From contig JAGWBB010000020.1 in the NCBI GenBank assembly GCA_021296095.1, forward strand, positions 605-64,604: DNA of 64,000 nucleotides. The letters are read 5' to 3'. Of this stretch, positions 15,469 to 43,849 are shown in pieces (within the stretch, counting starts at the first letter, position 1; each line of letters begins with the position of its first letter). Source of the DNA: Desulfurellaceae bacterium (GTDB lineage: Bacteria > Desulfobacterota > Binatia > Bin18). The translations under genes were made by a program, and so were the position numbers. The notes under the pieces were generated by a model that saw only the letters and a program-made list of their open reading frames with translations, was not told the DNA's origin and did not search any database.

Positions 15469-15625
15469 GGAGCTTAGGCTACCGCCCCCGCACCAATCAG
15501 AGCGACCATCCGCCCGGACAGGGGCGGTGCCTGTACGACGGCGTCGGGGCGTCTCCTGAGGACACCCCTCGAACACCGGTGGCCGGGACAGGCGGCGGGT
15601 GGCATTGGTGGCCTCACTTTTCGGA

Positions 15626-27198: not shown

Positions 27199-28485
27199 GT
27201 GGCAACCAACGGTCTTGCGAGTGTTCTCGAACATATTGATCCCCAGGTCAGCACGATTCTGCACCGGGCCCTGGACGGGGAAGAGGTGTCCTGGCAGGAA
27301 GGGCTGCGCCTGTGTGAGACAAACGGGCTGGATTTCCAGGTCACGTGCCTGGTTGCGGACGAGATGCGCCGGCGTCAGGTCGGCGAGGTGGTGACGTATG
27401 TGGTCAACCGCAACATCAACTTCACCAACGTGTGCATCAAACACTGCACCTTCTGCGCCTTCAGCCGCGAGTACCGTGAAGAGGAAGGCTATTTTCTGCC
27501 CGAGCAGGAAATCATCCGGCGCGCCCGGGAGGCCGTTGATGTGGGCGCCACCGAGGTGTGCATGCAGGCCGGTCTGCCGCCCAAGATGAACGGCAATCTG
27601 TATGTCGATCTGACCCGGGCGGTCAAGAAGGCGCTCCCCGACCTGCATATCCACGCCTTCTCACCCGAAGAGGTCTTGTACGGCGCAACGCGGGCGGCGG
27701 TCTCGATTCCCGACTATCTAGCCGCCCTTAAGGACGCCGGCCTCGATACCCTGCCCGGCACCTCGGCCGAGATTCTTGACCAGGACATCCGTGACCGCAT
27801 CGCCCCGGGCCGCATCACCACCGACCAGTGGATTGAGGTCATCACCTCCGCCCACGGCCTGGGCATTCCGACCACCTCGACAATTATGTACGGCCATATC
27901 GAGACCCCCCAGCACTGGGTCAAGCATATGAACCTGCTGCGCGACATCCAGAAGGACACCGGCGGCTTTACCGAGTTCGTTCCCCTGTCCCTGATTCACC
28001 AGGAAGCGCCGATGTACCAGCGCAAACTGGTTGACAATGTGCGGCAGGGCGCGACCGGCACGGAAGTCGTCAAGATGCACGCGGTCGCCCGTCTGATGCT
28101 CGGCCCGACCTTCCGCAATATTCAATCGTCGTGGGTCAAAGAGGGCCCGAAGATGGCCCAGCATCTGCTGAACGTCGGGGCCAACGACCTGGGCGGCACC
28201 CTGATCAACGAGAGTATCTCCACCTCGGCCGGCGCCCAGTACGGACAGCTCGTCCCGCCCAAAGAACTCCGACGGCTGATCCGCGATGTAGGTCGCACCC
28301 CGGCCGAGCGTGGGACGACCTACAAGCTGCGGACGGTCTTCAGCGGTCAGGACGAGGAGCTGAGCCCGCTTGATCTGGTCGAAAACCCGGACGAGCAGTT
28401 CGGTTCCTACCGCAGGCTGACCGCCTCGGATCAGTTCCGCTACGTGCATCCGTTCGAACGCGAGAAGCGGGCCGCTTCTCACTGA
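27199..28485 (+). CDS. cofH: FO synthase subunit 2 (CofH), radical SAM
   Basis: GTG start at 27199 with an AAGGAGG SD. CxxxCxxC motif CIKHCTFC. 428 aa, CofH-like in length and composition. Confidence 0.85.
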   Translation: MATNGLASVLEHIDPQVSTILHRALDGEEVSWQEGLRLCETNGLDFQVTCLVADEMRRRQVGEVVTYVVNRNINFTNVCIKHCTFCAFSREYREEEGYFLPEQEIIRRAREAVDVGATEVCMQAGLPPKMNGNLYVDLTRAVKKALPDLHIHAFSPEEVLYGATRAAVSIPDYLAALKDAGLDTLPGTSAEILDQDIRDRIAPGRITTDQWIEVITSAHGLGIPTTSTIMYGHIETPQHWVKHMNLLRDIQKDTGGFTEFVPLSLIHQEAPMYQRKLVDNVRQGATGTEVVKMHAVARLMLGPTFRNIQSSWVKEGPKMAQHLLNVGANDLGGTLINESISTSAGAQYGQLVPPKELRRLIRDVGRTPAERGTTYKLRTVFSGQDEELSPLDLVENPDEQFGSYRRLTASDQFRYVHPFEREKRAASH

Positions 28486-28499: not shown

Positions 28500-29474
28500 A
28501 TGCCCTTTTCCCAGTTCAGCATGCCACGCACTGAGGACCTCAGGATTACCGCTCTGGCCGGCGGGGTGGGAGCGGCCCGCTTTTTGCGCGGGCTGGTGCG
28601 CGTTATCAATCCGGCCAATCTGTGTGTGGTGGTCAACACCGGCGACGACGACGAATTTTTCGGTCTGTGCGTATCCCCGGATCTCGATACCGTCACCTAC
28701 ACGCTCGCCGATGCCGTCGATCACACCAAAGGCTGGGGGCTGCCGGACGAAAGCTTCCGCAGTCTCAAAGCACTGCAACGCTACTACCCCGAGACCTGGT
28801 TCGGTCTGGGCGACACCGACCTGGCGACCCACCTGTTCCGCACCCAGCAGCTGCGACAGGGCAAAAGCCTGACCGCAGTCACCGCCGCCATCACCCGCGC
28901 CTGGGGGGTACGGGCCACGGTGCTGCCAATGAGTAACGAACCGGTCCGGACGGTGGTCCACACCGAGGCGGGCGCCCTGCCCTTTCAGGAATATTTTGTC
29001 AAAGGCCGGGGCGAGGGGCGGGTCGGGCGGGTCGAGTTGCGCGGGCTGGACGGCGCTTGCCCGGCGCCGGGCGTGTGTGAGGCCATCCGATCTGCACATA
29101 TGGTGATTCTCCCGCCCAGCAACCCGCTCGTCAGCATCGGGCCGATTGTGGCCCTGCCGGGCGTTCGGGACGCCCTGTGTCAGACCCCCGCGCCGGTGGT
29201 CGGCATCAGTCCGCTGGTGGCCGGCAAACCGATCAAAGGCCCGGCCGACCGCATGCTCAGCGGCCTGGGTATCGAAGCCTCGGCGGCCGGGGTGGCCGGC
29301 CTGTACGCCGACTTTCTTGACGCCTTTGTCATTGATAGCCAAGACGCGGCTCTGCGGACCAAGCTCGAAGCCCAGGGGCTGACGGTTCGGGTGACCGATA
29401 CGATCATGAGTGATATGGAGAAGTCGGTCGCCCTGGCCCGGACGGTTGTTGAGCTCGTCACACAAGAAACCTAG
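28500..29474 (+). CDS. cofD: 2-phospho-L-lactate transferase (CofD)
   Basis: 324 aa, CofD/UPF0052 family. The N-terminal segment RITALAGGVGAARFLRGL is the family's dinucleotide-binding-like fold. It lies between cofH and cofE. The start could instead be the ATG at 28521. Confidence 0.8.
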   Translation: MPFSQFSMPRTEDLRITALAGGVGAARFLRGLVRVINPANLCVVVNTGDDDEFFGLCVSPDLDTVTYTLADAVDHTKGWGLPDESFRSLKALQRYYPETWFGLGDTDLATHLFRTQQLRQGKSLTAVTAAITRAWGVRATVLPMSNEPVRTVVHTEAGALPFQEYFVKGRGEGRVGRVELRGLDGACPAPGVCEAIRSAHMVILPPSNPLVSIGPIVALPGVRDALCQTPAPVVGISPLVAGKPIKGPADRMLSGLGIEASAAGVAGLYADFLDAFVIDSQDAALRTKLEAQGLTVRVTDTIMSDMEKSVALARTVVELVTQET

Positions 29475-30667: not shown

Positions 30668-31092
30668 TCGTTCCCGACATCAACCCGTTGCTATAGGCCC
30701 ACGATTCGGCATCCCGCCGGCACCAAGCCGCGCGTGAATGGTGGGAAGCGCTCATGAATGGAACAGACACAGTGGGCCTCCCCTGGATTGCCATCCTGGG
30801 TTTCATCCACATCTCGACGCACGCGAAGATCCTCGACAATCCGCTCGACGTGGGCGGCGCCTGTCGCCGAGTGCGGTCCTGGCTTGACCGCCCGCAAACG
30901 GCTCTCATCCATCCCGGCCCCCGGCATGCTGACATCCTGCTTGGTCTGATTGAGGCAGTCGGCACGGCGGGTAATCTGACAACGGATGCGCACCTGGCCG
31001 CTCTCGCAATCGAACATCAAGCCGAAATGCATTCCACCGACGCGGACATGGCGCGCTTTCCAGGATTGCGTTGGACGAATCCCCTTAGCTGA
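30664..31092 (+). pseudogene. vapC: VapC PIN-domain toxin gene with an in-frame amber codon at codon 11
   Basis: The frame from the GTG at 30664 reads VIVPDINPLL-TAG(30694-30696)-AHDSASRRHQAAREWWEALMNGTDTVGLPWIA...TDAHLAALAIEHQAEMHSTDADMARFPGLRW*. That is a complete VapC apart from TAG at the position where VapC proteins have a conserved Tyr (LLYAH). The track reports only the downstream part, 30754..31092. Confidence 0.65.
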
Positions 31093-31335
31093 GTCGCCTC
31101 ACAACCTCGTCTGCCTTCTCGGAAATGTTCGGCAGAGTCCGTAGGTTCGGATGAGCCGCAGGCGTAATCCAACATTTCCGGCCCGTTATCCAGGCTTCAG
31201 ATTCGCTTATCACGATAGGGAACGTTGCCCCGAACGAAGACGCAGGCACACAGTATCCGACGTGATGGTGTTGTACATGATTACACCCCAGCGTAGGGTA
31301 GACTTCGCTCATGTTATTCTACCTGGAGGACGACC

Positions 31336-31593
31336 ATGAGCCTCACCATCAAGAACGAGGAAACCTGCCGGCTGGCCGGTGAGTTGGCGCGGTTGACCGG
31401 TGAGACCATGACCGGCGCGATTACCGTCGCGTTGCGCGAGCGCCTTGCACGCGAGAAACGCCGGCACGATGCGGATGCCCTCGCGCGGGAGCTGCACGCC
31501 ATTGGACAGCGTTGCGCCAAACTACTGAGGCCGGGACCGTCCTCCGTGGAACATGGCGACCTGCTCTACGACGAGCGGGGATTGCCAAAGTGA
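31336..31593 (+). CDS. Type II antitoxin (VapB-family)
   Basis: 85 aa, MSLTIKNEETCRLAGELARLTGETMTGAITVALRERLAREKRR. A GGAGGA SD lies 6 nt upstream. Its stop overlaps the GTG of a PIN-like reading frame. Confidence 0.6.
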   Translation: MSLTIKNEETCRLAGELARLTGETMTGAITVALRERLAREKRRHDADALARELHAIGQRCAKLLRPGPSSVEHGDLLYDERGLPK

Positions 31594-31724
31594 TCATCGA
31601 CAGCTCGGCAGTGCTGACTGATACCGGTCACGATCAAACATCTGGCTCGATCTCTATAGAAGTGTTTAGGTTAGGGGAATTGTCGGCTTACGCTTCGCTA
31701 ATCCGACCTGCGGAGTCCCACTAG
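31590..31724 (+). pseudogene. Truncated VapC (PIN) toxin remnant, about 45 codons
   Basis: The frame from the GTG at 31590 reads VIIDSSAVLTDTGHDQTSGSISIEVFRLGELSAYASLIRPAESH*. It has the canonical VapC start (I-I-D-S/T-S-A) but stops after 45 codons, and the sequence after the first ~12 residues no longer resembles a PIN domain. Confidence 0.45.
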
Positions 31725-32542
31725 GGACTTACTGGAAGGGGTGGATGCTCATGGTCTTCCCACGGAGCGTAGAACCATTTTGGACACTTCGGTGGTGATG
31801 GTGTAGTTTGAAATCGGCTCACCAGTACGATTTTGCTCCACTGTTTTCTACCCACGCATTCCCGTACTCTTGCCTCGATTATTGCGCGCTCCTCTTCTGT
31901 CAATACTCTAATGGGTGCTATAAGAACTTCATCATCAAAAACCAACCACCACTGTTTATATTCCTTCGCCCGTTTTCCCTGTCGTACCTTTTTGGTTTTC
32001 TCCTCCACACCAGCAGCAATTCGCTCGGACAAAACGGATACGATAAGGGAGCCTGTGTCTTCACTCACTTCCGCGAAGCTTCCCTCATTGCTTGCCGGCC
32101 ACAATTGCAATATCACTCCTCGGCCACGTATCCGCTCCAGGGACAACAGCTGAATTTCTCTACCTCCTCCCCTGGTACGGAGTGCCTTGCGAGCTTTCTC
32201 CTTCCATTCTTTATCGCTCTTACTTGGCGGGCGCGGCTCTCTGGGGTCGTACTCGCAGAAGGAGTGCCATCTCGGTGCGTTCTCTTCTTTCGAGACTTCT
32301 TCAATCAGACGCTTGAGAGCCCGCTCAAAGGCATGTTTTTTGGTCCTGCTCCACCCGTCAGAATCATGCAAGAGGGTTACTTCCACAGCAATTTCTTCCT
32401 CCATGTACTTCACCAAGAAATCGGGAGGACCGTCCCCATCACCGACATATCGAATATCTGTTGCTCCGATTTGTTCGAGCCACTCCTTGACCCAAACTTC
32501 ACTCCCCTTTGGGATATCTTGTCGATCTTTTGTTGTGGCCAT
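31721..32542 (-). CDS. Hypothetical protein in the low-GC islet
   Basis: 273 aa from the ATG at 32542 (MATTKDRQDIPKGSEVWVKEWLEQIGATDIRYVGDGDGPPDFLVKYMEEEIAVEVTLLHD...); the track uses the TTG at 32578. Lys/Glu-rich and of much lower GC than the flanks. A weak PD-(D/E)xK-like pattern (PPDF...EIAVEV) is not convincing. Confidence 0.5.
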   Translation of the reverse strand: MATTKDRQDIPKGSEVWVKEWLEQIGATDIRYVGDGDGPPDFLVKYMEEEIAVEVTLLHDSDGWSRTKKHAFERALKRLIEEVSKEENAPRWHSFCEYDPREPRPPSKSDKEWKEKARKALRTRGGGREIQLLSLERIRGRGVILQLWPASNEGSFAEVSEDTGSLIVSVLSERIAAGVEEKTKKVRQGKRAKEYKQWWLVFDDEVLIAPIRVLTEEERAIIEARVRECVGRKQWSKIVLVSRFQTTPSPPKCPKWFYAPWEDHEHPPLPVSP

Positions 32543-32730
32543 CCCGTCTGTTGTCGCCGAGACCGGCCCCGCATGCAAGGTGGGTCGCCATTACGACACC
32601 GGTCGCGGCACGAACCACCGACACCGGTGACCGCTTTCGTTCTCCTGCTGACTCAGCTCCAATTGTTCAGGTAAAGAAGCTGATCGCGTAGCGCTTCAGC
32701 AGAAAAATTGTTCAGGATGTAAGGTAGATT

Positions 32731-33051
32731 TTAATGGCGGCCATCGTCAAAGGGACGAATCGTCGGCGGATATTTCCGCAGAACTGCGTCAAGATTGGTT
32801 AATTCGGTAATTTCCCGGTCCATCTCAGCCTGATGGTCGTAGTAGTAAGACAGCGCGTCGTGGATTTCTGCCGGCCTGAGAGCGGGAAACTCGCGCAGGA
32901 GTTCTTCAACAGACAATCCACGACGGTAGTCTTGAATGATGGAACTCACCGGAAAGCGGCTTCCTCTGATGACAGGTCTTCCTCCCTGAACGTGCGGACG
33001 ACGCTCCACATAGGGATGACCTGTGTCCGTTGGCATAGTCCGGGTGCTCAT
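32731..33051 (-). CDS. DUF433 domain protein (antitoxin-like HTH)
   Basis: ...GGRPVIRGSRFPVSSIIQDYRRGLSVEELLREFPALRPAEIHDALSYYYDH matches the DUF433 signature. The start is the ATG at 33051 or 33036. The usual DUF5615/PIN partner is absent. Confidence 0.6.
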   Translation of the reverse strand: MSTRTMPTDTGHPYVERRPHVQGGRPVIRGSRFPVSSIIQDYRRGLSVEELLREFPALRPAEIHDALSYYYDHQAEMDREITELTNLDAVLRKYPPTIRPFDDGRH

Positions 33052-33140: not shown

Positions 33141-34430
33141 ATGCGAAATACGATTCCGCTTGCTCTCCGCAGCATGTTTTTTGCCACCTGCCTCGTCCAG
33201 CTTCTGCTCGCCACTCCCGCTTTCGCGTCCCCACCGCCCGGCGTCAGCCTCATCGAGGGTCGCCTGGCGCCATTTTTCCACAATCGGCCCGTGTCGGCCT
33301 TTCGGGTCTACGCCTTCCACGACGATAGGCCGCAGCCGGTTCCGTTTCAGATCGACGAGCGGGACGAGCGGGAGCGCTGGATTCTGAACCACGGTCCAAA
33401 GGCCAAACACGACAGTCCGGCCGGGGTGTTTGACGCCAACGACGCCATTGTGGTGATGAACCGCGACCTTGGCCGACGCGGCGACCCGTCCGTCCTGCCG
33501 GACCGGGCCAGCCGCTGGGCCGAGGTCCGGGTCGGGACGGAAACGGACCCGCTGGGTTTTGTCTATGTGGGTGTTTTTCCCCCGGCTCAGGCCCCGCAGT
33601 TCGTGACCCGGCCCTACGCCCGCTACGACCCGGCGACCGACCGGGTCTATGCCGAGCGCTACGCCCTGGCCTTTGACGCCCCGCTGCCAACCCATTTTGC
33701 CCCGGTCGAACGGCTGGGCGACTTTGGCACAAATACCATCGCCGGGATCAAAGCCGCAGCCGATGTGCGTCTGCTGGGCGGCCTGCTGAGCTTTCAGCGC
33801 ACGCACGCCGATCTGCGCAGCACGCTGCGCAGCTACCAGCCCGGCCCGGTCCGGGTGATCCGTCAGGCGCGCTACTGGGTGCCGCTGCCGTTTGGCCTGC
33901 GCACCTCGGGCAAGGTCAACCTCATCTTCTACCGTGACTTTGTCGAGGGCAGTGCGCTGATCAAGCTGAAAATCCCGCCCCGCCTGGTTCTGGCCGACGG
34001 CGAGTTCAAGACCTATTTTGATTTTCTGAATCTCGGCGGCGCCCGCCTGCTGCTGAACGGTGCGCCGCTGGGCGAGGCCGTGAACGGTTCCATGACTGCG
34101 GCAAAACGCGCCCTGAACGGCCGCCCGGCGCGCTGGGCGGCCCTGCTGCTGCCGAGCGGCCGCACGGTCGTGTTCATTCCCCGGCTTGGGGGCGCCTTGG
34201 CCAAACTCGACCAGCGCGCCTATTATGCCGAAAACACGGCCGACCCCGGCCTGCCCCATTTCGGCTTTCAGTTTTTTGAAATCAAGCGTTTGGAGAGCGG
34301 CGCGCATCGCCTGTCGGTTTTTGGCCTGCTGCTGGACAGCGCCGATCCCGACACGGTTCGGCGGGCGACCGAGATATTTCTGTCTCCGCCCCAGGTGGAG
34401 GTCAGCCTAGTCAACGCCCCGCTGGACTAG
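33141..34430 (+). CDS. Hypothetical secreted protein (about 430 aa)
   Basis: The predicted signal is MRNTIPLALRSMFFATCLVQLLLATPAFA|SPPP. GC content is high again here. No recognisable catalytic motifs. Alternative starts are the ATGs at 33108 and 33132. Confidence 0.5.
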   Translation: MRNTIPLALRSMFFATCLVQLLLATPAFASPPPGVSLIEGRLAPFFHNRPVSAFRVYAFHDDRPQPVPFQIDERDERERWILNHGPKAKHDSPAGVFDANDAIVVMNRDLGRRGDPSVLPDRASRWAEVRVGTETDPLGFVYVGVFPPAQAPQFVTRPYARYDPATDRVYAERYALAFDAPLPTHFAPVERLGDFGTNTIAGIKAAADVRLLGGLLSFQRTHADLRSTLRSYQPGPVRVIRQARYWVPLPFGLRTSGKVNLIFYRDFVEGSALIKLKIPPRLVLADGEFKTYFDFLNLGGARLLLNGAPLGEAVNGSMTAAKRALNGRPARWAALLLPSGRTVVFIPRLGGALAKLDQRAYYAENTADPGLPHFGFQFFEIKRLESGAHRLSVFGLLLDSADPDTVRRATEIFLSPPQVEVSLVNAPLD

Positions 34431-35498
34431 AGACCAGGCGGCGACCGCCATCTGACGACACTGTTCTTTATAGCCCAGGGCCTGGGGCGAGCTGGCATTG
34501 CCGTCCAGCCCGCGCTTGTACACGCCCTGGATGATGGCGCCAATACGGAACAGGGCAAACACGATGTAGAAGGTCCAGTGCGGGATCCGGTCGCGTCCGG
34601 TCAGCGCGCAGTAGCGGGCCACGTAGTCCTGCTCGGACGGAATGCCATAGCTGGCGTAGTCAAGCCCGGTGATATCGCCCCGGATATCGTCCGGCACGTG
34701 GTAGGGCAGACAGTTGTGGGCCAGATCGGCAAACGGTGCTCCCAGCGTGCTCAGCTCCCAATCGACCACCGCCAGCACGCGCGGCTCGGTCGGATGGAAA
34801 ATCATATTCTCCAGACGAAAGTCGCCGTGGGAAATGGTGGTCTGGTCGTCGTCCGGCAGATGCGCGGGCAACCACGTCGTGAGCCGTTCCATCTCGGGAA
34901 TCTCTTCGGTCTTGCTGGCCTCGTACTGTTTGGTCCAGCGGCCGACCTGGCGGGCCATATAGCCGCCGACCCGGCCGTAATCCTCCAGGCCGACCGCCCG
35001 AAAATCCACCTGGTGCAGCTTGGCGATGGCTTCGACCATGGCCCCGTAGACAACCCCCCGCTCGGCCGGTGGCATGTCGCGCAGCTCATAGCCGCGCAGC
35101 ACCCGGCCGTCAATAAAATCCATCAGATAGAAATCGGTGCCAATCACCGACGCGTCCTGACACAGGACGTAGGGTTTGGCGACCGGCACATCGGTGTCCC
35201 ACAGCGCCGAAATGACCCGGAACTCGCGATCAACCGCGTGGGCCGAGGGCAGGAGTTTGCCCGGCGGCTTCTTGCGCAGCACGTAGCGTCGGCCGGCCGC
35301 GTCGGTCAACACAAAGGTCGGGTTGGACATGCCGCCCCGAATCTGTCCGACATGCATCGGCGGGCTGAAGTCGGGCAGCTGGTGGTGCATATAGCGCTCA
35401 AGGTTAGCCTGGTCGAAGCGGTGCTGCTCTAGCACCGGTGCCGTTTCTGCGGTCAGCGAGACCGGCGGTAGCGCCTCGGCCTGCGGGTCGGTCGCCAT
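34407..35498 (-). CDS. Phosphotransferase-family protein (APH/ChoK-like kinase fold)
   Basis: Start at the ATG at 35498. Contains the Brenner motif ISHGDFRLENMIF and the metal-binding VVDWE motif. 363 aa, APH-like length. Confidence 0.8.
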   Translation of the reverse strand: MATDPQAEALPPVSLTAETAPVLEQHRFDQANLERYMHHQLPDFSPPMHVGQIRGGMSNPTFVLTDAAGRRYVLRKKPPGKLLPSAHAVDREFRVISALWDTDVPVAKPYVLCQDASVIGTDFYLMDFIDGRVLRGYELRDMPPAERGVVYGAMVEAIAKLHQVDFRAVGLEDYGRVGGYMARQVGRWTKQYEASKTEEIPEMERLTTWLPAHLPDDDQTTISHGDFRLENMIFHPTEPRVLAVVDWELSTLGAPFADLAHNCLPYHVPDDIRGDITGLDYASYGIPSEQDYVARYCALTGRDRIPHWTFYIVFALFRIGAIIQGVYKRGLDGNASSPQALGYKEQCRQMAVAAWSLVQRGVD

Positions 35499-35515
35499 TC
35501 TGAGTTTCTCCTTGC

Positions 35516-36604
35516 TCACACGCCGCGCTCGACCAGGTCCCAGGCGGCGGTCGCCAGCTGTTTGCACTTTTCGCCCCGGGTGATGGCTTCGGGCGAGCTG
35601 GCGTTGCCGTCCAGTGCCCGTTTGTACACCCCCTGGACAATCGCCGCCAGCCGGAAGAGCGAAAACACCACGTAAAAGTTCCAGTTTTCAATGGCCGGAC
35701 GATCCATCTGGCGGCAGTAGCGGGCCACGCAGTCCTGCTCGGACGGGATGCCGTAGGCGGCAAAATCGAGACTCGTGATGTCGCCCCGGATATCGTCCGG
35801 CACATGGTAGGGCAGACAGTTATAGGCCAGGTCGGACAGGGGGGCGCCGAGCGTGCTCAGCTCCCAGTCGACCACGGCCAGAACCTCGGGCCGGGTCGGA
35901 TGGAACAGCAGGTTCTCCAGGCGAAAATCGCCGTGGGCGATCGTCGTCTCATCATCGTCCGGCAGATGCTCGGGCAGCCAGGCCATGAGCCGCTCCATGG
36001 CCGGCAGCTGCTCAGTTTTGCTCGCCTCATACTGCTTTGACCAGCGCCTGACCTGGCGCGCCATATAGCCCCCGACCCGGCCATAGTCCTCAAGCCCGAC
36101 GGCCCGGAAGTCCACCCGATGGATCTTGGCCAGGGTATCGATCATGGTGTCATACACTGCCCGCCGCTCGCTCGCGCTCAGGTCGGGCAGCTCATAGCCG
36201 CGAAACACCCGGCCCTCGACAAAATCCATAATATAAAAGTCCACGCCCAGCACCGACGCGTCCTGACACAGCACATGGGGTTTGGCAACCGGCACGTCGG
36301 TCTGCCACAGAGCCGAGATGATCCGAAACTCCCGGTCAACCGCGTGGGCCGAGGGCAGCAGTTTGCCGGGCGGTTTCTTGCGCAGGACGTAGCGCCGGCC
36401 GGCCGCGTCGGTCAGGATAAAAGTCGGGTTCGACATGCCGCCCCGCACCTGTCCGACCGCCAGCGGCGGGCTGAAGGTTTCAATATGCTCGGTCATGTAG
36501 CGCGTCAGCGCGGCCTCATCGAAACGGTGCTGGTCAAGCACCGGCGCCGTCTCAGCCGTGAGCGAGGTGAGCGGGCTGGTCTCTACGGGTTGGGGTGTCG
36601 CCAT
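35516..36604 (-). CDS. Phosphotransferase-family protein, tandem paralogue of 34407..35498
   Basis: 362 aa, roughly 80% identical to the downstream gene over its full length. Examples: SLTAETAPVL(D/E)QHRFD, GGMSNPTF(I/V)LTDAAGRRYVLRKKPPGKLLPSAHAVDREFR, (I/A)HGDFRLEN, VVDWELSTLGAP. Confidence 0.8.
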   Translation of the reverse strand: MATPQPVETSPLTSLTAETAPVLDQHRFDEAALTRYMTEHIETFSPPLAVGQVRGGMSNPTFILTDAAGRRYVLRKKPPGKLLPSAHAVDREFRIISALWQTDVPVAKPHVLCQDASVLGVDFYIMDFVEGRVFRGYELPDLSASERRAVYDTMIDTLAKIHRVDFRAVGLEDYGRVGGYMARQVRRWSKQYEASKTEQLPAMERLMAWLPEHLPDDDETTIAHGDFRLENLLFHPTRPEVLAVVDWELSTLGAPLSDLAYNCLPYHVPDDIRGDITSLDFAAYGIPSEQDCVARYCRQMDRPAIENWNFYVVFSLFRLAAIVQGVYKRALDGNASSPEAITRGEKCKQLATAAWDLVERGV

Positions 36605-36674
36605 GGCGCATCTCTCCTTCTCGAACAGTCCCCTAGTTCAATCACCCGGCCAGCGGTGCCGTCAAGGCGAGGCT

Positions 36675-37232
36675 TCAGCCGACGCGGGTGGGTCGCTCGC
36701 GGCCGAGGCTCACCACCCGCAGGCTCCCGTCACGCTGTTCGAGCACAGTGCACGAGCAGTGGTCCGGCTCGAAACACACCATCCGGTCATCGCTCCTGGC
36801 CGCTCCCACCGCAGCATTGATGGCCACAAAATGGGTCGTGATCAGGCTCGGTGTTCGCAGGCCGCACAGAAAAGCGACCAGCTGCGCTTTCCAGTCCTGA
36901 TACGCCTGCGGCAGCTCGCTCCAACGACCACCCAGGACGCGGCGAATCCAGGCTGCACGCTCGGCCAGCTCCTGGCTGGGCGAGGGAATCTCGGCCACCG
37001 CAGGCTCGACCCGGGCCTCACACTTCCACATCTGCTCAAACGGAACGGCAGTATCCCGAGCCCGCCGCAGCGGGCTGGTGATGAGCGACAGGCGGCCGAG
37101 CGGTTCGAGCCGTTTGGCCAGCTCCGCAGCCTGGCGGTGGCCACGCTCGTCAAGCCCGGGGTCCGGGTCTTCGCCAAACCCGGCCTGCGGTTGGCCGTGG
37201 CGAATGAGGTAGAGCTTGGGGGCGGGTGTCAT
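36675..37232 (-). CDS. Histidine phosphatase family protein (phosphoglycerate-mutase-like)
   Basis: Start at the ATG at 37232 after AAGGA (MTPAPKLYLIRHGQP...). The RHG catalytic motif is present, followed by ...ITSPLRRARDTA. 185 aa. First gene of the operon with the two phosphotransferases. Confidence 0.75.
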   Translation of the reverse strand: MTPAPKLYLIRHGQPQAGFGEDPDPGLDERGHRQAAELAKRLEPLGRLSLITSPLRRARDTAVPFEQMWKCEARVEPAVAEIPSPSQELAERAAWIRRVLGGRWSELPQAYQDWKAQLVAFLCGLRTPSLITTHFVAINAAVGAARSDDRMVCFEPDHCSCTVLEQRDGSLRVVSLGRERPTRVG

Positions 37233-37473
37233 CGTGTCGTCCTTATATGCCCAAAAAATGGGCAGTCGTGTTGCTTTTTGCGCAGGCGTGCAGCCCTCTC
37301 CAGCCACCCCCAGTGCCACCCAATATCCGATCCGGCCAAGCTGTTTTGCCTGAAATTCGGGCTGGAGACTGCTGTCAGGTTCCCCCGCTACGCAGGCCCA
37401 GTTTGGCATGATATATGCGGTTTCTCTACTGCCTACACCGGCGTCCAACTCGCAGGACGGGGAGAGACCGACC

Positions 37474-38958
37474 ATGACGCGTTTTGATGGCTATGACACC
37501 GAGGGATTTTTCGACGAAATGCTGTTTCCTGAGGGGACGCCGCGGCCGGCCGCCGCACTCCTGCTGGAAAGGATCCAGAGCCTGCCGGATGGCGAGATAA
37601 ACCGTCGCCAGGAGGCAGCCGAACGCAGCCTGCTGCATCGGGGCATCACCTTTAATGTCTATAGCGACGGGGCCGGCATGGAAAAAATCTGGCCGTTCGA
37701 TCTGCTGCCGCGCATCATCGACGCCGCAGAGTGGGAATGGATCGAGCGCGGCCTCAGGCAGCGCATCCAGGCCCTGAATCTGTTCATCGACGATATCTAC
37801 CACGACCAGAAGATCCTCAAAGACGGCCTCATTCCCGCAGAGATCGTTCGTTCGGCGACCAGCTTCCGTCCCTCGTGTGTCGGCCTCGATCCTCCCCTTG
37901 GCGTGTGGTGCCATATCACCGGCACCGACCTGATCCGAGATCGCGACGGCCAGATCTACGTCCTGGAAGACAACCTCCGCTGCCCGTCGGGGGCGTCCTA
38001 TGTCCTGCAAAACCGAGAACTCATGAAGCAGACCTTCCCCCTGGTCTTTGAAGCTTCTCAGGTCCGCCCGGTTGACGATTATCCGAACCGCCTGCTGGAA
38101 ATGCTGCTGTCCCTGGCCCCGGCCCACCTGAGCACGCCGACGGTCGCGGTGTTGACCCCGGGGATCTATAACGCGGCCTATTTCGAACATTCGTTTCTGG
38201 CCCAGCAGATGGGTGTCGAGCTGGTCGAGGGACGCGATCTGGTGGTCGCCGACGGCTTTGTCCAGATGCGGACGACCACCGGACTCGAGCGGGTTGACGT
38301 GCTGTATCGGCGGATCGACGACGATTTTCTCGATCCGACGGTCTTCCGGGCCGACTCAACGCTGGGTATCCCGGGCATTATGGAGGTCTATAAAGCCGGC
38401 CGTATCGCCCTGGTCAACGCCCCCGGCACGGGCATTGCCGACGATAAGGTCATCTACGCCTATGTGTCCAAGATGATCGCCTATTATCTGGGCGAGGAAA
38501 TGCTCATCCCCAATGTCCCGACCTATCTGTGTTGGGACGCCTCCGACCGCCAGTACGTCCTGGAGCATCTTGAGCAGCTCGTGGTCAAAGCCGCCAATGA
38601 ATCGGGTGGCTACGGTATGCTGATCGGGCCGCACTCGACGGCCGCCGAACGCGCTGCATTTGCTGCAAAGATCGCGGCCCAGCCGCGCAATTATATCGCC
38701 CAGCCGACGGTGTCGCTGTCGCGCGTCCCGGTGCTCGTCGATGACCGCTTTGAGGGCCGCCATGTCGATCTGCGGCCGTATATTCTGTACGGCAAGGATA
38801 TGTATGTCCTGCCCGGCGGCCTGACCCGGGTGGCGCTCAAAAAGGGCTCGCTGGTCGTCAACTCGTCCCAGGGCGGCGGCAGTAAAGACACCTGGGTGCT
38901 GTCCGGCCCGTCGTCGGCCCACACCCAGGCGGTCCCCTCGGCCATACAGGACGCCTAG
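37474..38958 (+). CDS. Circularly permuted type-2 ATP-grasp protein (DUF404/DUF407 family)
   Basis: Start at the ATG at 37474 after GGGGAGAG. 494 aa, collinear with the N-terminal half of the fused protein at 40848..43391. Shared blocks include [51 protein letters not shown] and [10 protein letters not shown]. Confidence 0.85.
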
Positions 38959-38988
38959 AGACGGCCCACCCAGCGCAGGAAGAGTCGT

Positions 38989-39960
38989 ATGCTAAGCCGC
39001 GTTGCCGACACGATCTACTGGATGAGCCGCTATATCGAGCGGGCCGAAAATGTCGCCCGTTTCATTGATGTCAACCTGCTCATGCTGCTTGACCTGCCCT
39101 CGGGTGTCCGCGAACAGTGGGAGCCGTTGATTATCGCCTCCGGGGATCACACCCCATTCCAGGACTCCTACGGCGTAGCGACCCGGGCCAACGTGCTGCA
39201 ATTTCTGACCTTCGATCAGAAAAACCCCAACTCCATTCTGTCGTGTTTGCGCACCGCCCGGGAAAACGCCCGGTCCATCCGGGAGGTCATCTCCTCGGAA
39301 ATGTGGGAGCAGGTCAACACGTTTTACCTGATGGTCAATGAATCGGCCGCGGACAATCGCGTCATGAGCGCCCCGCACGACTTCTTTACCGAAATCAAGC
39401 TGGCCAGCCACCTGTTCGAGGGGCTGACCGACAATACCATGTCGCACGGCGAGGGTTGGCACTTCTCGCGGCTCGGCACCCTGCTGGAGCGGGCCGATAA
39501 GACCTCCCGTATCCTGGATGTGAAATACTTCATGCTGCTGCCGGCGGCGTCTGGGGTCGGCAGCCCGTTTGACAACATCCAGTGGGCGGCCGTGCTGCGC
39601 TCAAGCAGCGCGTTTGAGATGTATCGCAAGCGCCACCACCAGATCGTCCCGACCCTGGTGGTTGACTTCCTGCTGCTTGGCCGAGACTTTCCCCGCTCGG
39701 TCCACCACTGCCTGATTGAAGCCGACGAGTCCCTGCACGCGATTTCGGGCACGCCTTTGGGCGCCTTCAGAAATCCGGCCGAGCAACACCTGGGTCAGCT
39801 CCGCTCAGAACTCGCCTACACCGAGGTCAGCCAGATCATTGAGCGGGGCGTCCACGGGTTTGTCGACGCCTTTCAGACCAAGCTCAACCTGGTCGGAGAC
39901 GGCATATTTGACACCTTTTTTGCCGACCGGCCGATTGGTGGCGCCGTCCCGCAGCCCTGA
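38989..39960 (+). CDS. Alpha-E domain protein (DUF403)
   Basis: 323 aa starting MLSRVADTIYWMSRYIERAENVARFIDV, the conserved alpha-E N-terminus. Immediately downstream of the CP-ATP-grasp gene. Confidence 0.85.
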   Translation: MLSRVADTIYWMSRYIERAENVARFIDVNLLMLLDLPSGVREQWEPLIIASGDHTPFQDSYGVATRANVLQFLTFDQKNPNSILSCLRTARENARSIREVISSEMWEQVNTFYLMVNESAADNRVMSAPHDFFTEIKLASHLFEGLTDNTMSHGEGWHFSRLGTLLERADKTSRILDVKYFMLLPAASGVGSPFDNIQWAAVLRSSSAFEMYRKRHHQIVPTLVVDFLLLGRDFPRSVHHCLIEADESLHAISGTPLGAFRNPAEQHLGQLRSELAYTEVSQIIERGVHGFVDAFQTKLNLVGDGIFDTFFADRPIGGAVPQP

Positions 39961-39972
39961 GGCACGGGCCGG

Positions 39973-40851
39973 CTAGGCCCGTTTTGCCTCGACCTCGACC
40001 TCCAGGCTATGCGTCCCGCCACCAAAAGCCACGCCCTTTAAGGGTGTCACATCGCTGTAATCCCGACCCCAGGCCAGGACGATATGCCGCTCGGTCGGCG
40101 TCAGATTGTTGGTCGGATCAAAATCTACCCAGCCCTGACCCGGACTGTAGACCGACACCCAGGCGTGGGACGCTGCGGCTCCGACCAGGGACGCCGAGTC
40201 GGTCCGGTCGGACACGGTTTCGAGATAGCCGCTGACATAGCGGGCGGCCAGTCCCAGCGAGCGCAGACACGCAATCGCCAGCTGGGCGTAGTCCTGACAC
40301 ACCCCCCGGCGGTGGGACAAGACCTCGCCGACCGGGGTTGCCGCATGGGTGAAGCTCGGATCGTAGCTCAGGTCGTGGTAGATGCGCTGCATCAGCTCGT
40401 GGACCGCTTCGAGCACACAGCGCCCGGGCGAGAACGACGGCGCGGCATAGTCGGCAAAGGCTGGGGCGGCGACGATCAGAGGAGAGTCCAACACAAACTG
40501 GCGGGCGGCCAGCAGCTCGGGATCGAGACTCTGGGCCAGCTCCCGGCCAAGCTCCTCCCAGGCCGGCGATGCCTGGAGCGGTGGCGGCACGATTGGTCTG
40601 AGCAGCACCCTGCTCGACGCCCGCACCTCCAGCACAGTGTGAGCTTCCTGGACCGCAAAGTGGACCACCCGGTTACCAAAAAAGTCCTCGCGTTCCTGAT
40701 ACACCACCGGGGCCGGATCGATCTGGAGCTGGCTGGTCTGACACTGCTGGCGCTCACAAGACCGCGGCAGCAGATAGGCTTCATTCTGGCACTGAGGAAC
40801 CGACAGACTGTAGCGATAGCGGGTCGTGTGGACGATCGTGTAGGAAATCAT
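39973..40851 (-). CDS. Transglutaminase-like protein (bacterial TGase N-terminal domain plus Cys-His-Asp core)
   Basis: MISYTIVHTTRYRYSLSV... is the Bact_transglu_N segment. The core includes ...GVCQDYAQLAIACLRSLGLAARYVSGYL...ASHAWVSVY...WVDFDPTN (C, H, D). Its start overlaps the upstream fused gene's stop by 4 nt. Confidence 0.85.
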   Translation of the reverse strand: MISYTIVHTTRYRYSLSVPQCQNEAYLLPRSCERQQCQTSQLQIDPAPVVYQEREDFFGNRVVHFAVQEAHTVLEVRASSRVLLRPIVPPPLQASPAWEELGRELAQSLDPELLAARQFVLDSPLIVAAPAFADYAAPSFSPGRCVLEAVHELMQRIYHDLSYDPSFTHAATPVGEVLSHRRGVCQDYAQLAIACLRSLGLAARYVSGYLETVSDRTDSASLVGAAASHAWVSVYSPGQGWVDFDPTNNLTPTERHIVLAWGRDYSDVTPLKGVAFGGGTHSLEVEVEAKRA

Positions 40852-43391
40852 GCCCGGTGTTCCATCAGCTGTTGCTGGGCTTCGATATGGCTGAAGTAGG
40901 TCTGGCCGAGGGCGTCGGACAGGGCCAGCAGCAAGGCCCCCAGCCGGGCAAACAGCTCGTCCAGGCTTTCATACACCGTCGCTTCCCATACGGCCTGGGA
41001 CAGCCCCTCAATATCCGTCGTACGCAGCGTAGTCAGGGCTTGCAGCACCAGACGTTGGGCCGGGCTGCGGTGCGGCAGGCTGGCCTTGCGCGGCAATCCA
41101 TCGACGTGCTCCTGCAGCCGGACCAGCTGGTAGCCGAGCGAGCGGGGATTGCTCTCATCGTGCAGCAACAGGTCAAGCGCGGCCTGGGCGTCCACCTGGC
41201 TATGATAGCGCCGCCGGTAGGTTCGCAGGCTGTCGGTCATGGTCAGCACCACCTCCCACAGCCCGCCCCGCCCGCCCGGCGCCATCTCGCAGGCGAGGTG
41301 CAGCAGGCTGATGGTGTGCAGGGCGCGCTCCAAACGGCGTCCTATCTCGTGGAACCGCAAGCCCTGTCCCCGGCTCGTGCTCTCCGTCATCAGGCCGCTG
41401 AACGAGGCCAGCCCAGCGATCACCCGGGACAGACTTTGCAGGGTCTGGTTCAGGCTCATGCCCGGCGAGAGTTCCCGATCCAGCGTGTTCAGCACCCGTG
41501 CCGTATCGTCGGACAAGCGGTCGCGGACCGCCCGGCCAGCCTGCAACACGGCGTCCAGCGTACCACGCAAACTGCCCGAGCGCGTCGGCTCAAGGATGAC
41601 CGACAACAGCTCGGACTCTTTGGCCACCAGCCGCTGGCCGTCGCCGTGGCCGACCAGGTGCAGATAGGTCACCGCGGCATGGGTCACCGCCGACAGCAGG
41701 CCCGGCAGATAGGGGCCATGATGGACGGCCTCGGTATCCAACAGACGCACTAGCATCTCCCGAAACACCCGAGTGCCGTCTTCCATACGCTCGGTATAGC
41801 GGCCGAGCCAAAACAGATTATCGGCCACCCGGCTCGGGATCTCCCCGCCACTGCGGGTGATGGCGACCGGCCGCTCGGCCGAGGGTAGCAGGCTCAGCGT
41901 CTGCTCGGGCTCCGAGGCCACAACCCAGATATCCTTACTCACCCCGCCCTGTTGACTCGACACCTGCCAGACATCCGGGCCGGGCGCCACCCGCGCCAGC
42001 CCGCCCGGCATGACCACATAGCCGTCATCCCGCGCCACCAGAAAACTGCGCAGGACCAGGGGACGCGGCGCCAGTTTGCCATCCACAAAAGTCGGGCTGG
42101 TGGCCACCGCAATCGGCTCCTGGCCAACGTAACGGTGCGGCTGGGCCTGGATACGGTCCGCAAGCGCCTGCCGCTCGGTCGCAGACAGCTGAGCGCCAAA
42201 GACGGTTTCAGCGCTGGGGTGTGGAACGGTCGGTTTAATCACCAGACGATCCAGATGGTCCAGGACATAGCGGCGTTCGTCCTGGCCGCCGCACCACCAG
42301 GTGGCAACCGACGGCAGGCGCAAGTCCTGCCCCAGCAGCTCCCGGCACAGGCCGGGCAGGAAGGCCAGCAGACCCGGATTTTCGATGATGCCGACGCCGA
42401 GCGGATTGGCGACCACGGCCTGATGCGTGCGTGTCGCCTGAACCAGCCCGGGAATGCCCAGCGGCGAGTCTTTACGCAGCTCCAGCGGATCGCAAAAGGC
42501 ATCGTCAACCCGACGCAGCACGGCGTCGACCCGCTGCAGGCCGTCCAGGGTCCTGAGCCACACACGCCCGTCCCGGACGGTCAGATCACTCCCCTGGACC
42601 AGGGTGTAGTCGAGGTACTGGGCGATATAAGCGTGCTCGAAATAGGTTTCGTTGCCCGGCCCCGGCGTCAACAGCACGGTCCGGCCCGGCTCCTGGCGGT
42701 GGGAAACGAGGCGGGCCAGCGAGCTGCGTAAGGTTCGGAAATACAGGGCCAGGCGATGGACATGGGTGTCGCGGTACAGACTCGGGAAGACCCGCGACAG
42801 GGTCAGCCGGTTCTCCAGGGCATAGCCGGCCCCCGAGGGCGCCTGGGCGCGGTCGCCGATGACCCACAGCCGGCCGTCGTGAGAGCGGGCAAAATCGGCC
42901 GCGTAGGAAAACAGAAAGCGCTCGGCGGGCGGGCTGATGCCGACACAGGCGCGCAGAAATCCGGGATGGCTGTAGATCAAATCGAGCGGCAGCAGGCCCT
43001 GTCTGACCAGTTTTTGTGGGCCGTACAGGTCGGCCAGCACGAGGTTGTACAGCTCGGCGCGCTGAATCAGACCGCGTTCAATACCGCTCCACTCCTGGCT
43101 GGTCAGCAGGACCGGGATCAGATCGAGCGCCCACGGCCGTCCCCCACCGCGGTTATCCGGGTACACATTATAGGTGACCCCATTCTCGTGCAGCAGGCGG
43201 CGGACTTCCTGTTCGCGGTACCGCAGCTCCCTAGCCCCGAGGGCATCCAGGGCACGAATCATATACTCCCAGTGGGGACGCGGCTGTTGGGGTGCAGCAC
43301 ACAGCTCATCGTAGCTCCCGGCCGGGACGTGATAGTCCGCAAGAAGACTGCTGCGTGCCGGAGCCGGAACGGCGAGATCCGCATCGTGCAT
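40848..43391 (-). CDS. Fused circularly-permuted ATP-grasp + alpha-E domain protein
   Basis: 847 aa from the ATG at 43391. The N-terminal approximately 480 aa are a paralogue of 37474..38958. The C-terminal region, IPSRVADNLFWLGRYTERMEDGTRVFREML..., is an alpha-E domain paralogous to 38989..39960. Confidence 0.8.
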   Translation of the reverse strand: MHDADLAVPAPARSSLLADYHVPAGSYDELCAAPQQPRPHWEYMIRALDALGARELRYREQEVRRLLHENGVTYNVYPDNRGGGRPWALDLIPVLLTSQEWSGIERGLIQRAELYNLVLADLYGPQKLVRQGLLPLDLIYSHPGFLRACVGISPPAERFLFSYAADFARSHDGRLWVIGDRAQAPSGAGYALENRLTLSRVFPSLYRDTHVHRLALYFRTLRSSLARLVSHRQEPGRTVLLTPGPGNETYFEHAYIAQYLDYTLVQGSDLTVRDGRVWLRTLDGLQRVDAVLRRVDDAFCDPLELRKDSPLGIPGLVQATRTHQAVVANPLGVGIIENPGLLAFLPGLCRELLGQDLRLPSVATWWCGGQDERRYVLDHLDRLVIKPTVPHPSAETVFGAQLSATERQALADRIQAQPHRYVGQEPIAVATSPTFVDGKLAPRPLVLRSFLVARDDGYVVMPGGLARVAPGPDVWQVSSQQGGVSKDIWVVASEPEQTLSLLPSAERPVAITRSGGEIPSRVADNLFWLGRYTERMEDGTRVFREMLVRLLDTEAVHHGPYLPGLLSAVTHAAVTYLHLVGHGDGQRLVAKESELLSVILEPTRSGSLRGTLDAVLQAGRAVRDRLSDDTARVLNTLDRELSPGMSLNQTLQSLSRVIAGLASFSGLMTESTSRGQGLRFHEIGRRLERALHTISLLHLACEMAPGGRGGLWEVVLTMTDSLRTYRRRYHSQVDAQAALDLLLHDESNPRSLGYQLVRLQEHVDGLPRKASLPHRSPAQRLVLQALTTLRTTDIEGLSQAVWEATVYESLDELFARLGALLLALSDALGQTYFSHIEAQQQLMEHRA

Positions 43392-43719
43392 GGTCTGTTT
43401 CCCCAGTCTGCCCGCCGACTCGCTATGTACCATCGGGACACCACCGACTCAAGCGAGCGGCCGGCCGTAGGGCGCGGGCCACAGGCGGAGCAGATACCAG
43501 ACGAGCATGGCGGTATCGTCTGACAGCCATCGCCTGCTCCTGACACAGCAGCCCGCTGATCAAAAAACAGGCAAGTCTGACGACTCGATACGACCAGCTG
43601 GGCGAAAACCCCGGTATTTCACACGTTTGGCGGCTGGCACGATATCTGCCCAGAAAAAGCGGTGCGACCGGAGTAGTGGAGAGGATGCCTATCCCCTCTC
43701 GGCTTCTCTCTACTATACT

Positions 43720-43759
43720 GGGGGATGGTGTCCCTCTCCTACACCATCCCCCTTTTCTT
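43720..43759 (+). terminator. Rho-independent terminator, plus-strand orientation
   Basis: A perfect 12 bp stem, GGGGGATGGTGT (43720-43731) pairing with ACACCATCCCCC (43741-43752), with a 9 nt loop, is followed by TTTTCTT. No annotated plus-strand gene lies upstream. Confidence 0.5.
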
Positions 43760-43780
43760 ATGTCGCCACTCTTCTGACAC

Positions 43781-43807
43781 AAAAAAGGGCAGCCCTCTGG
43801 GCTGCCC
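43781..43807 (-). terminator. Rho-independent terminator of phaC (minus strand)
   Basis: The 9 bp stem GGGCAGCCC/GGGCTGCCC has a 3 nt loop. On the minus strand it is followed by TTTTTTGTG (plus-strand AAAAAA at 43781-43786). It lies about 45 nt after the phaC stop. Confidence 0.75.
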
Positions 43808-43849
43808 TGCTAGCACTCTTGGTGAAAGCGGTGTGTCACACCGCGCCGT

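Follow-up and report, generated by a model that had tools for sequence, protein, structure and literature searches.

A fused and a split CP-ATP-grasp/alpha-E module, predicted amidoligase paralogues, lie side by side in an uncultured Candidatus Binatia genome

Circularly permuted (CP) ATP-grasp, alpha-E, and transglutaminase-like proteins are predicted to form a peptide ligase/peptidase system (Iyer 2009, as cited in PMC3495828 and PMC5666114), for which Iyer and Aravind, as these two papers cite them, favored protein tagging over small molecules. When the proteasome relative Anbu was co-expressed with its operon partners, no modified form was seen (PMC5666114). In Burkholderia cenocepacia, the genes I35_5080-83 (coding for DUF404/407, DUF403, transglutaminase, and large transglutaminase proteins) are 6-9-fold sigma-54/NtrC dependent (PMC5491218), and in Pseudomonas putida, PP_2688 (a CP ATP-grasp) and PP_2685 are induced on nitrate relative to ammonium (PMC8050072); the latter is annotated as a bacterial proteasome beta subunit (PMC8050072) and is presumably Anbu. 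A 2026 preprint treats Mycobacterium tuberculosis Rv2411c and Rv2567 as candidate ATP-binding enzymes, with negative results in its assay. A sequence-only reading of the locus described here had stated that the system has no biochemically defined substrate, and this is borne out, as we found neither such a substrate nor a published ligase assay for any member in the searchable literature.

The locus lies within a 64-kb stretch of DNA (the window) from an uncultured Candidatus Binatia host, and consists of two convergent modules with four genes (Table 1), all of which an ORF check found in the positions given to them by the earlier reading. We consider it likely, and hold this with good confidence, that the modules are two members of the predicted CP-ATP-grasp/alpha-E/transglutaminase-like amidoligase system, and that they are ancient paralogues acting as separable units rather than as two feeders of one enzyme.

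Table 1. Genes and candidate regulatory elements of the locus, in window coordinates
Feature	Position	Strand	Description
Sigma-54-type (-24 GG / -12 GC) promoter-like element	37404..37419	+	TGGCATGATATATGCG; pattern search
Split CP-ATP-grasp	37474..38958	+	494 aa; predicted ATP-dependent carboxylate-amine ligase
Split Alpha-E	38989..39960	+	323 aa; all-helical; presumed partner subunit of the ATP-grasp
Inverted repeat	39964..39985	+	ACGGGCC-GGCTA-GGCCCGT then TTTT; read from sequence
Transglutaminase-like, papain-fold	39973..40851	-	292 aa; Cys-His-Asp; second gene of fused operon
Fused CP-ATP-grasp + Alpha-E	40848..43391	-	847 aa

Pfam searches support the ATP-grasp and alpha-E assignments in both paralogues, together with that of the transglutaminase. 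The split ATP-grasp (scanned as ORF 37408/37474-38958) matches CP_ATPgrasp_2 (1.2e-167) and CP_ATPgrasp_1 (5.3e-143), the split alpha-E protein matches Alpha-E (1.6e-104), and the transglutaminase-like protein matches Bact_transglu_N (1.4e-24) and Transglut_core (3e-22). The long ORF of the fused gene (40848-43433) matches CP_ATPgrasp_2 over its residues 107-483 (3.3e-150) and Alpha-E over residues 533-847 (9e-69), and the fused protein is laid out as an ATP-grasp region (~20-492), a poorly conserved linker (~493-518), and an alpha-E region (~519-847). At both assigned starts, 37474 and 43391, coding conservation in alignment with an 80%-identical relative sets in at the ATG, and a GGAG-type ribosome-binding site stands ahead of each. 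The stop codon of the fused gene overlaps the transglutaminase start as ATGA, confirming an overlap noticed earlier, and the convergent stops of the alpha-E and transglutaminase genes are 12 nt apart. NCBIfam returned no meaningful match for any of the four proteins, and Rfam nothing in or around the locus, just two distant tRNAs. An anti-phage defense role was also considered, and was rejected because none of the four proteins matched a PADLOC model.

Both modules possess a CP-ATP-grasp and an alpha-E protein with the ER motif, as in the system of Iyer 2009, and the fused module has a transglutaminase in its operon, whereas the split pair has none in cis. The Anbu-type operons of that system (Pseudomonas aeruginosa, P. 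putida PP_2685-2688, Yersinia) share the same three protein families and conserved motifs, their ATP-grasp and alpha-E genes are ordered as in the split pair, and their published nitrogen regulation is compatible with sigma-54-type control here; however, no transglutaminase is co-directional with the split pair in this window, and no Anbu gene was found near the locus. No Anbu/proteasome family match was obtained among the 24 candidate reading frames at 27-52 kb that were scanned with Pfam. In B. cenocepacia H111, split ATP-grasp and alpha-E genes open the sigma-54-dependent unit I35_5080-5083, with a matching -24/-12 element here, but there they are co-transcribed with both transglutaminase-type genes, whereas here they face the fused operon with neither in cis. 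The fused gene and its coupled transglutaminase are common to this locus and to the DUF2126-type cluster, composed of a large transglutaminase-DUF2126 gene, a fused gene, and a small transglutaminase gene, although the first of these is missing from the 64-kb window. We take the cluster to be represented in M. tuberculosis by Rv2566-Rv2569c.

The modules are well diverged, as had been proposed: the split and fused ATP-grasps are 36% identical over 481 aa (E=8e-105), and the alpha-E proteins are 24% identical over 287 aa (E=3e-20). An unrooted comparison of the fused and split forms for their ancestry, without an outgroup, yields two ancient clades. ATP-grasp identities are 29-40% between the clades, against no less than 38% among fused members and no less than 52% among split members; orthologues of the split ATP-grasp are 52-99% identical. 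Judged from these comparisons, the two modules are ancient paralogues and do not reflect a local duplication.

The possibility that the fused gene arose artificially during assembly or annotation, with two adjacent genes joined by sequencing error or by a chimera near 41900, has nothing in its favor beyond the generic risk of metagenome assemblies, and we regard it as practically negligible. The fused ATP-grasp/alpha-E gene is uninterrupted in all 80 related loci, which come from independent assemblies of Binatia, Leptospira, Bacteroidota, and Pseudomonadota and include isolate genomes (Leptospira spp. and the complete chromosome of Flavobacterium faecale). Among the matches listed, out of at least 8,000 scored, 120 of 120 have both Pfam domains in a single chain of ~845 aa. 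The linker is continuous and in-frame, and AlphaFold2 models the whole chain with a pTM of 0.77. The fusion can thus be read as a true gene, as the sequence-only reading had it, and its natural occurrence argues that ATP-grasp and alpha-E are one functional unit.

To see how the modules are distributed, we compared the neighborhoods of the 80 fused-gene loci, taken from species-level genomes with flanks of up to 10 kb; the underlying database searches gave at least 8,000 matches for each of two queries. In essentially all loci, the small transglutaminase gene lies directly 3' of the fused gene; both are orthologous to their counterparts here, at 37-95% identity, and together they are the invariant core. 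A split pair occurs within 10 kb of the fused gene in 23 of the 80 genomes, representing several phyla and at least five arrangements, and 12 of these 23 have a co-directional five-gene cluster of split ATP-grasp, alpha-E, DUF2126, fused gene, and transglutaminase. With co-location this frequent and this variable, the organization is not unusual, contrary to what had been supposed, and because the side-by-side layout recurs in many genomes, the locus is an ordinary member of a known system. A DUF2126 gene is present in the flanks of 56 of the 80 loci, mostly immediately upstream.

Close relatives share a syntenic frame of OsmC, a 152-aa gene, a hydrolase, [DUF2126], the fused gene, the transglutaminase, [split pair], His_Phos, APH, and APH, in which the bracketed elements vary. 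The DUF2126 gene (large Bact_transglu_N + Transglut_core + DUF2126) is absent from the window and from relatives of at least 83% identity, and is present in the same synteny at 80% (L003) and 66% (L089) identity; in tblastn, the 1118-aa L003 protein matched only the small transglutaminase in the 64-kb window, an absence that had escaped the sequence-only reading. All four combinations are represented: the split pair without DUF2126 (the window, L001, and L087), neither (L002 and L088, 94% and 83% identical, which keep the fused and transglutaminase genes in synteny), both (L003), and DUF2126 without the split pair (L089). The split pair and DUF2126 therefore vary independently of one another, and do so between close relatives as well. 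Split-pair orthologues are often without any transglutaminase, standing alone in L082, L084, and L085; the pair in L086 has its own. In L081, the convergent layout survives the insertion of foreign genes between the modules.

A sigma-54-like site, with three mismatches to the consensus, is positioned ~55 nt upstream of the start codon of the split ATP-grasp gene, and corresponds to a block conserved in L003 (TGGCACGATATATGCG) within otherwise diverged upstream sequence. Similar sites precede 12 of 21 split ATP-grasp genes, but only 2 of 79 fused genes and 2 of 54 DUF2126 genes, against a background of 0.055 per 330 nt. Over the whole window, the consensus has 92 matches relative to 112 expected, which is not above chance, and the promoter call is for this reason based on position, conservation, and cross-lineage enrichment. 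Upstream of the fused operon there is no convincing sigma-54-type site, and no promoter was identified. A scan for sigma-70 promoters and terminators gave nothing informative for either operon, other than a terminator belonging to the hydrolase gene upstream. The inverted repeat spanning the 12-nt gap between the convergent stops scored under the cut-off of that scan, and could at most serve the split operon as a weak terminator. We read the split pair as transcribed separately from, and convergently with, the fused operon, under a sigma-54-like promoter of its own. With a promoter of this type, the pair is probably switched on by an enhancer-binding protein; by analogy with Burkholderia and Pseudomonas this could be NtrC under nitrogen limitation, and the site fits the published NtrC/sigma-54 and nitrogen-source control of homologues.

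The ATP-grasp has 56 positions with at least 95% conservation in split and fused clades alike; the ER motif of alpha-E is kept as E17-R18 (split) and E534-R535 (fused), and a second motif, G..ER, is likewise conserved in both versions. The transglutaminase triad (C185, H229, D245) is at least 95% conserved among 74 orthologues, and the protein weakly matches PDB 3ISR and 6G49 in sequence. Structural neighbors of the ATP-grasp are 3N6X, YgiC, glutathione, homoglutathione, and trypanothione synthetases, GspS, and Cp1B, and the nearest that are structurally characterized are all small-molecule acid-amine ligases. The top match, 3N6X (Methylobacillus flagellatus Mfla_0391), is a structural-genomics entry that carries no functional data and represents the stand-alone (split) form. 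GspS, the YgiC/YjfC acid-amine ligases, and eukaryotic-type glutathione synthetase are just 10-15% identical to the ATP-grasp here, and have no counterpart of the alpha-E partner, for which structure comparison gave no informative relative. The GSP_synth-type ATP-grasp with an N-terminal CHAP amidase that typifies glutathionylspermidine synthetase/amidase was not found; the CHAP domain is absent, and a transglutaminase-fold protein stands in its place.

A nearby gene for a small peptide or protein substrate was also sought, and no conserved candidate adjoins either module. The intergenic distances (30 nt, 12 nt, and a 4-nt overlap) leave no room for one, and of the 460 bp that precede the fused gene, no ORF has support. 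We note that L081 contains an 89-aa ORF after alpha-E, which has no Pfam match and no counterpart in the window.

Protein fold and genomic neighborhood are the basis on which we infer the ligase chemistry, the substrate, and what alpha-E does. On the minus strand, the fused protein and the translationally coupled small Cys-His-Asp transglutaminase-fold enzyme constitute the conserved two-gene core, whose usual upstream large transglutaminase-DUF2126 partner appears to have been lost from the locus in this lineage; on the plus strand, the split ATP-grasp and alpha-E would form the separate convergent unit behind the sigma-54-type promoter. Each ATP-grasp, with its alpha-E partner, would activate a carboxylate as an acyl-phosphate, and ligation of the activated carboxylate with an amine would yield an amide or isopeptide conjugate. 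The transglutaminase-fold thiol enzyme could hydrolyze or transfer this bond, much as in the synthetase/amidase pair of glutathionylspermidine synthetase. Because the nearest structurally characterized relatives act on small molecules, we lean toward a small metabolite, peptide-like or polyamine-like, in preference to a protein tag.

Protein tagging is nonetheless what has been predicted in print (Iyer 2009, as cited in PMC3495828 and PMC5666114). The ATP-grasps would add amino-acid or peptide tags, as tubulin tyrosine and glutamate ligases do, the transglutaminase-fold enzyme would remove them, and in other genomes Anbu would degrade the tagged proteins, serving protein turnover during nitrogen starvation. 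The association with proteasome-like Anbu in Pseudomonas and the induction under nitrogen limitation agree with this scheme. However, the closest solved ATP-grasp relatives are all small-molecule ligases, the ORFs scanned around the locus include nothing Anbu-like, neither module is adjoined by a conserved small substrate gene, and the Anbu co-expression result noted above (PMC5666114) speaks against it, such that we view tagging as a tentative and less probable alternative.

The sequence-only reading had pictured two specificities feeding one downstream enzyme, around a single transglutaminase. In this scheme, the split and fused ligases would act on the same substrate with different specificities, in parallel or sequentially (initiation then elongation, or a first and a second amide bond as with GshA/GshB), and the one local transglutaminase-like enzyme would process both products. 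Several observations are in its favor: the modules are neighbors in the 23 genomes, 12 of them with co-directional clusters, the convergent layout persists in L081, both ligases retain their conserved residues, and in the window the split pair lacks a transglutaminase of its own. Yet transcription is convergent from separate promoters, the transglutaminase is fixed and translationally coupled to the fused gene in essentially every locus, and the core is maintained without the split pair in L002, L088, and, with DUF2126, L089. Because the split pair is often without a transglutaminase and the modules vary independently, a shared downstream enzyme is unsupported, and we judge the scheme unlikely; in M. 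tuberculosis, moreover, the two modules presumably lie at separate loci. We therefore prefer to read the modules, which are gained and lost independently, as related but separable units, although finding them linked in 23 of 80 genomes points to some functional connection that this reading may understate. It is a doubtful idea that the two ligases perform two steps, or have two specificities, in a single nitrogen-starvation pathway that builds and then cleaves an amide-linked small metabolite, such as a peptide-like or polyamine conjugate. If so, split pair, fused gene, small transglutaminase, and DUF2126 amidoligase would be linked repeatedly, yet not obligatorily, because the pathway is modular and its steps can be exchanged, and the variants with and without them among near-identical Binatia genomes would offer a comparative handle on the product.

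The system is among the more widespread bacterial gene sets without a known substrate, and is tied to Anbu, itself an unexplained relative of the proteasome. This locus neither solves the substrate question nor eases it much, and Pseudomonas, Burkholderia, and Mycobacterium are better models for doing so. What it adds is the invariant core of fused gene and transglutaminase, about which the split pair and DUF2126 come and go independently. Also new is the predicted sigma-54-type promoter of the split pair, which recurs across several phyla and by which the link to nitrogen limitation would reach beyond the Proteobacteria.

The fused ATP-grasp/alpha-E gene, which forms module A with a small transglutaminase, is a real gene, as the sequence-only reading proposed, and all four reading frames of this module and of the split pair convergent to it (module B) were found in the sequence. 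Pfam supports the ATP-grasp and alpha-E assignments in both paralogues. Relatives of the fused protein were sought by scanning one genome per species, which gave 174 confirmed, and in all 80 loci kept (the best 80 of 174) ATP-grasp and alpha-E lie in a single frame. The closest of these 80 are Candidatus Binatia MAGs (95%, 94%, and 80% identity), with farther ones in Leptospira, Bacteroidota (Chitinophagaceae, Flavobacterium, and Cyclobacteriaceae), and Pseudomonadota. A protein database search returned at least 8,000 matches, and among the 120 matches listed all 120 are ∼845 aa with both Pfam domains; this recurrence excludes an assembly chimera for practical purposes. Proteins with the fused architecture carry routine annotations, such as JGI's 'uncharacterized circularly permuted ATP-grasp superfamily protein/uncharacterized alpha-E superfamily protein.' The start codons at 37474 and 43391 are backed by an alignment with a relative of 80% identity, in which conserved sequence sets in at these codons, each preceded by a GGAG-type ribosome-binding site. 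The TGA of the fused gene overlaps the transglutaminase ATG as ATGA, and the convergent stop codons of alpha-E and transglutaminase are separated by 12 nt.

Coordinates of the two modules and flanking features (window positions)
Feature	Position	Strand	Details
Split CP-ATP-grasp	37474-38958 (ORF from 37408)	+	CP_ATPgrasp_2 1.2e-167, also CP_ATPgrasp_1 (Pfam)
Split alpha-E	38989-39960	+	Alpha-E 1.6e-104 (Pfam)
Transglutaminase-like	39973-40851	-	Bact_transglu_N, Transglut_core (Pfam)
Fused ATP-grasp/alpha-E	40848-43391 (ORF from 43433)	-	CP_ATPgrasp_2 3.3e-150, then Alpha-E 9e-69 (Pfam)
Sigma-54-type element	37404-37419		TGGCATGATATATGCG, ∼55 nt upstream of split ATP-grasp start
Conserved block	37260-37290		GGGCAGTCGTGTTGCTTTTT, ∼130-150 nt upstream of sigma-54-like element
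Radical-SAM CofH/MqnC-like gene	27199-28485
CofD gene	28500-29474
Low-GC patch	31000-33000		0.52-0.55 vs 0.62-0.66 around
ORF in patch	31721-32578	-	No Pfam match
ORF in patch	31808-32674	+	No Pfam match
APH-APH-His_Phos_1 trio	34407-37475	-
APH-family kinase	34407-35567	-
APH-family kinase	35516-36604	-
Intergenic region with structured stretch	43640-43830		RNA fold z-score -5.7; no Rfam match
Inverted repeat	43720-43752		GGGGGATGGTGT-N9-ACACCATCCCCC, perfect, 12 bp
Terminator hairpin	43786-43808	-	Precedes structured stretch

By their sequences all four genes look functional, because conserved residues are kept: the transglutaminase-like triad C185 (in GVCQD), H229, and D245, which at least 95% of the 74 orthologues compared retain, 56 ATP-grasp positions at least 95% conserved in the fused and split clades alike, and the W..(R)Y.ER and second G...ER motifs in both forms of alpha-E. 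The linker of the fused protein (residues ∼493-518) is its least conserved stretch, and the AlphaFold2 model (pLDDT 76.4, with pTM 0.77 for the whole chain) shows it as disordered. The sole solved sequence relative of the ATP-grasp is a structural-genomics entry, 3N6X, and its structural neighbors are the E. coli acid-amine ligase YgiC, eukaryotic-type glutathione and homoglutathione synthetases, trypanothione synthetase, glutathionylspermidine synthetase/amidase (GspS), and the fungal E-64 ligase Cp1B, all of which join a small carboxylate and an amine via an acyl-phosphate, a chemistry well established for the ATP-grasp superfamily. A sequence search found no solved alpha-E structure; the split alpha-E is modeled with confidence (pLDDT 87.5) as wholly helical, and structural comparison matches the model to generic helix bundles only. 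The natural fusion, as Rosetta-stone evidence, suggests that ATP-grasp and alpha-E act as one unit. From its fold and intact thiol triad, the transglutaminase-like protein would be an amidase, peptidase, or transamidase reversing or transferring the ligated group, a pairing that may parallel the synthetase/amidase logic of GspS; such a role was predicted by Aravind's group (PMC3495828).

The two modules are clearly diverged paralogues (ATP-grasp parts, 36% identity, E=8e-105; alpha-E parts, 24%, E=3e-20), and a local duplication is ruled out as their origin by identities within and between clades. For ATP-grasp these are 38-99% within the fused clade, 52-99% within the split, and 29-40% between; for alpha-E, 20-99%, 31-99%, and 13-28%, sequence comparisons that show an ancient pair of clades. 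Nor is their co-location unusual, as had been suggested, since a split pair lies within 10 kb of the fused gene at 23 of the 80 loci. The arrangements include clusters of five co-directional genes (split ATP-grasp, alpha-E, DUF2126, fused gene, transglutaminase) at 12 loci, most of them in Leptospira, as well as a pair downstream of the transglutaminase (three loci), a divergent pair upstream, and a convergent pair as here (L001, L003, and L061). At locus L081 the convergent layout survives despite NYN and AAA_15/DUF4276 genes inserted between the modules. The constant core across the 80 loci is the fused gene with the small transglutaminase directly behind it. An ∼1,100-aa protein with Bact_transglu_N, Transglut_core, and DUF2126 (Pfam, 'putative amidoligase') occurs in the fetched flanks (up to 10 kb) of 56/80, usually immediately upstream of the fused gene.

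The proposal that two specificities feed one transglutaminase does not agree, as an obligatory design, with independent variation of the split pair. The Binatia frame is OsmC, a 152-aa ORF, alpha/beta-hydrolase, [DUF2126], fused gene, transglutaminase, [alpha-E, ATP-grasp], His_Phos, APH, APH. With identity to the window's fused protein in parentheses, the window, L001 (95%), and L087 (87%) have the split pair without DUF2126, L002 (94%) and L088 (83%) have neither, L003 (80%) has both, and L089 (66%) has DUF2126 without the split pair. L002 carries 2.1 kb of other sequence in place of window segment 37240-39933 (promoter and both split genes). Close split alpha-E orthologues (67-71% identity) also occur elsewhere, the pair standing alone with no transglutaminase nearby (L082, L084, and L085) or with its own (L086). 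From this series and the stand-alone pairs, the fused gene and transglutaminase are self-sufficient, and the split pair and DUF2126 vary independently; the split pair may share the transglutaminase opportunistically.

Several observations concern neighboring DNA. The L002 replacement (13460-15560) encodes an REase-ARP/PD-(D/E)XK nuclease together with a protein of 319 aa for which Pfam gave no hits, and the L081 insertion occupies the matching position; the space separating the two convergent operons resembles a hot spot for the insertion of defence-like genes. In L086, a 255-aa protein with no recorded Pfam hit (8987-9754), between alpha-E and transglutaminase, holds the position of Anbu in Pseudomonas-type operons, and may represent either a diverged Anbu or a new partner. 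Past a clear terminator hairpin, the intergenic DNA that separates the fused gene from the end of the hydrolase gene (43850) holds the strongly structured stretch, which sits where relatives carry DUF2126; its inverted repeat is single-copy in the window. The tandem APH paralogues (∼78% nucleotide identity) and His_Phos_1 phosphatase gene are divergent from split ATP-grasp and syntenic in all Binatia relatives, with or without the split pair. The low-GC patch, with its overlapping ORFs, may be foreign DNA, and the F420 and menaquinone-type cofactor genes upstream are unrelated to the modules.

Consensus sigma-54 matches are not above chance by count across the window (92 found, 112 expected). 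The promoter call for the split pair is supported by conservation, cross-lineage enrichment, and agreement with homologue experiments. The element is a conserved island within upstream DNA diverged from L003, whose counterpart, TGGCACGATATATGCG, is nearer to consensus. When GG and GC are required and at most three mismatches allowed (background, 0.055 per 330 nt), sites precede 12/21 split ATP-grasp genes (Binatia, Leptospirales, Spirochaetaceae, and Pseudomonadota), and just 2/79 fused and 2/54 DUF2126 genes; module A yielded no comparable element. Burkholderia cenocepacia H111 I35_5080-83 (DUF404/407, DUF403, transglutaminase, and large transglutaminase) rank with the genes whose dependence on sigma-54 and NtrC is strongest (PMC5491218), P. 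putida PP_2688 (CP ATP-grasp) and PP_2685 (annotated bacterial proteasome beta subunit, presumably Anbu) are induced on nitrate relative to ammonium (PMC8050072), and an RpoN site is predicted upstream of a Bradyrhizobium CP_ATPgrasp_1 gene (PMC13207237). By inference, module B forms a unit under enhancer-dependent control and probably responds to limited nitrogen. The upstream block shared with L003 is plausibly placed for an enhancer-binding-protein site.

A comparative-genomics description of the system dates from 2009, and the Anbu literature discusses it (PMC5666114, PMC6376114). Our literature search found no paper defining a substrate biochemically, in line with the sequence-only reading, whose observation is real and well described and whose interpretation is supported in part only; a 2026 preprint expressed M. 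tuberculosis Rv2411c and Rv2567 solely as negative candidates for another activity. Compared with the commonest forms of the system, the window locus is without DUF2126 and also without Anbu, for which Pfam gave no proteasome-family hit in the 24 candidate reading frames scanned between 27 and 52 kb, and its split pair faces the fused operon convergently. Such differences amount to variations on a known, uncharacterised system; useful additions to it are the picture of an invariant core with variable accessories and the sigma-54 signal that precedes the split pair across phyla.
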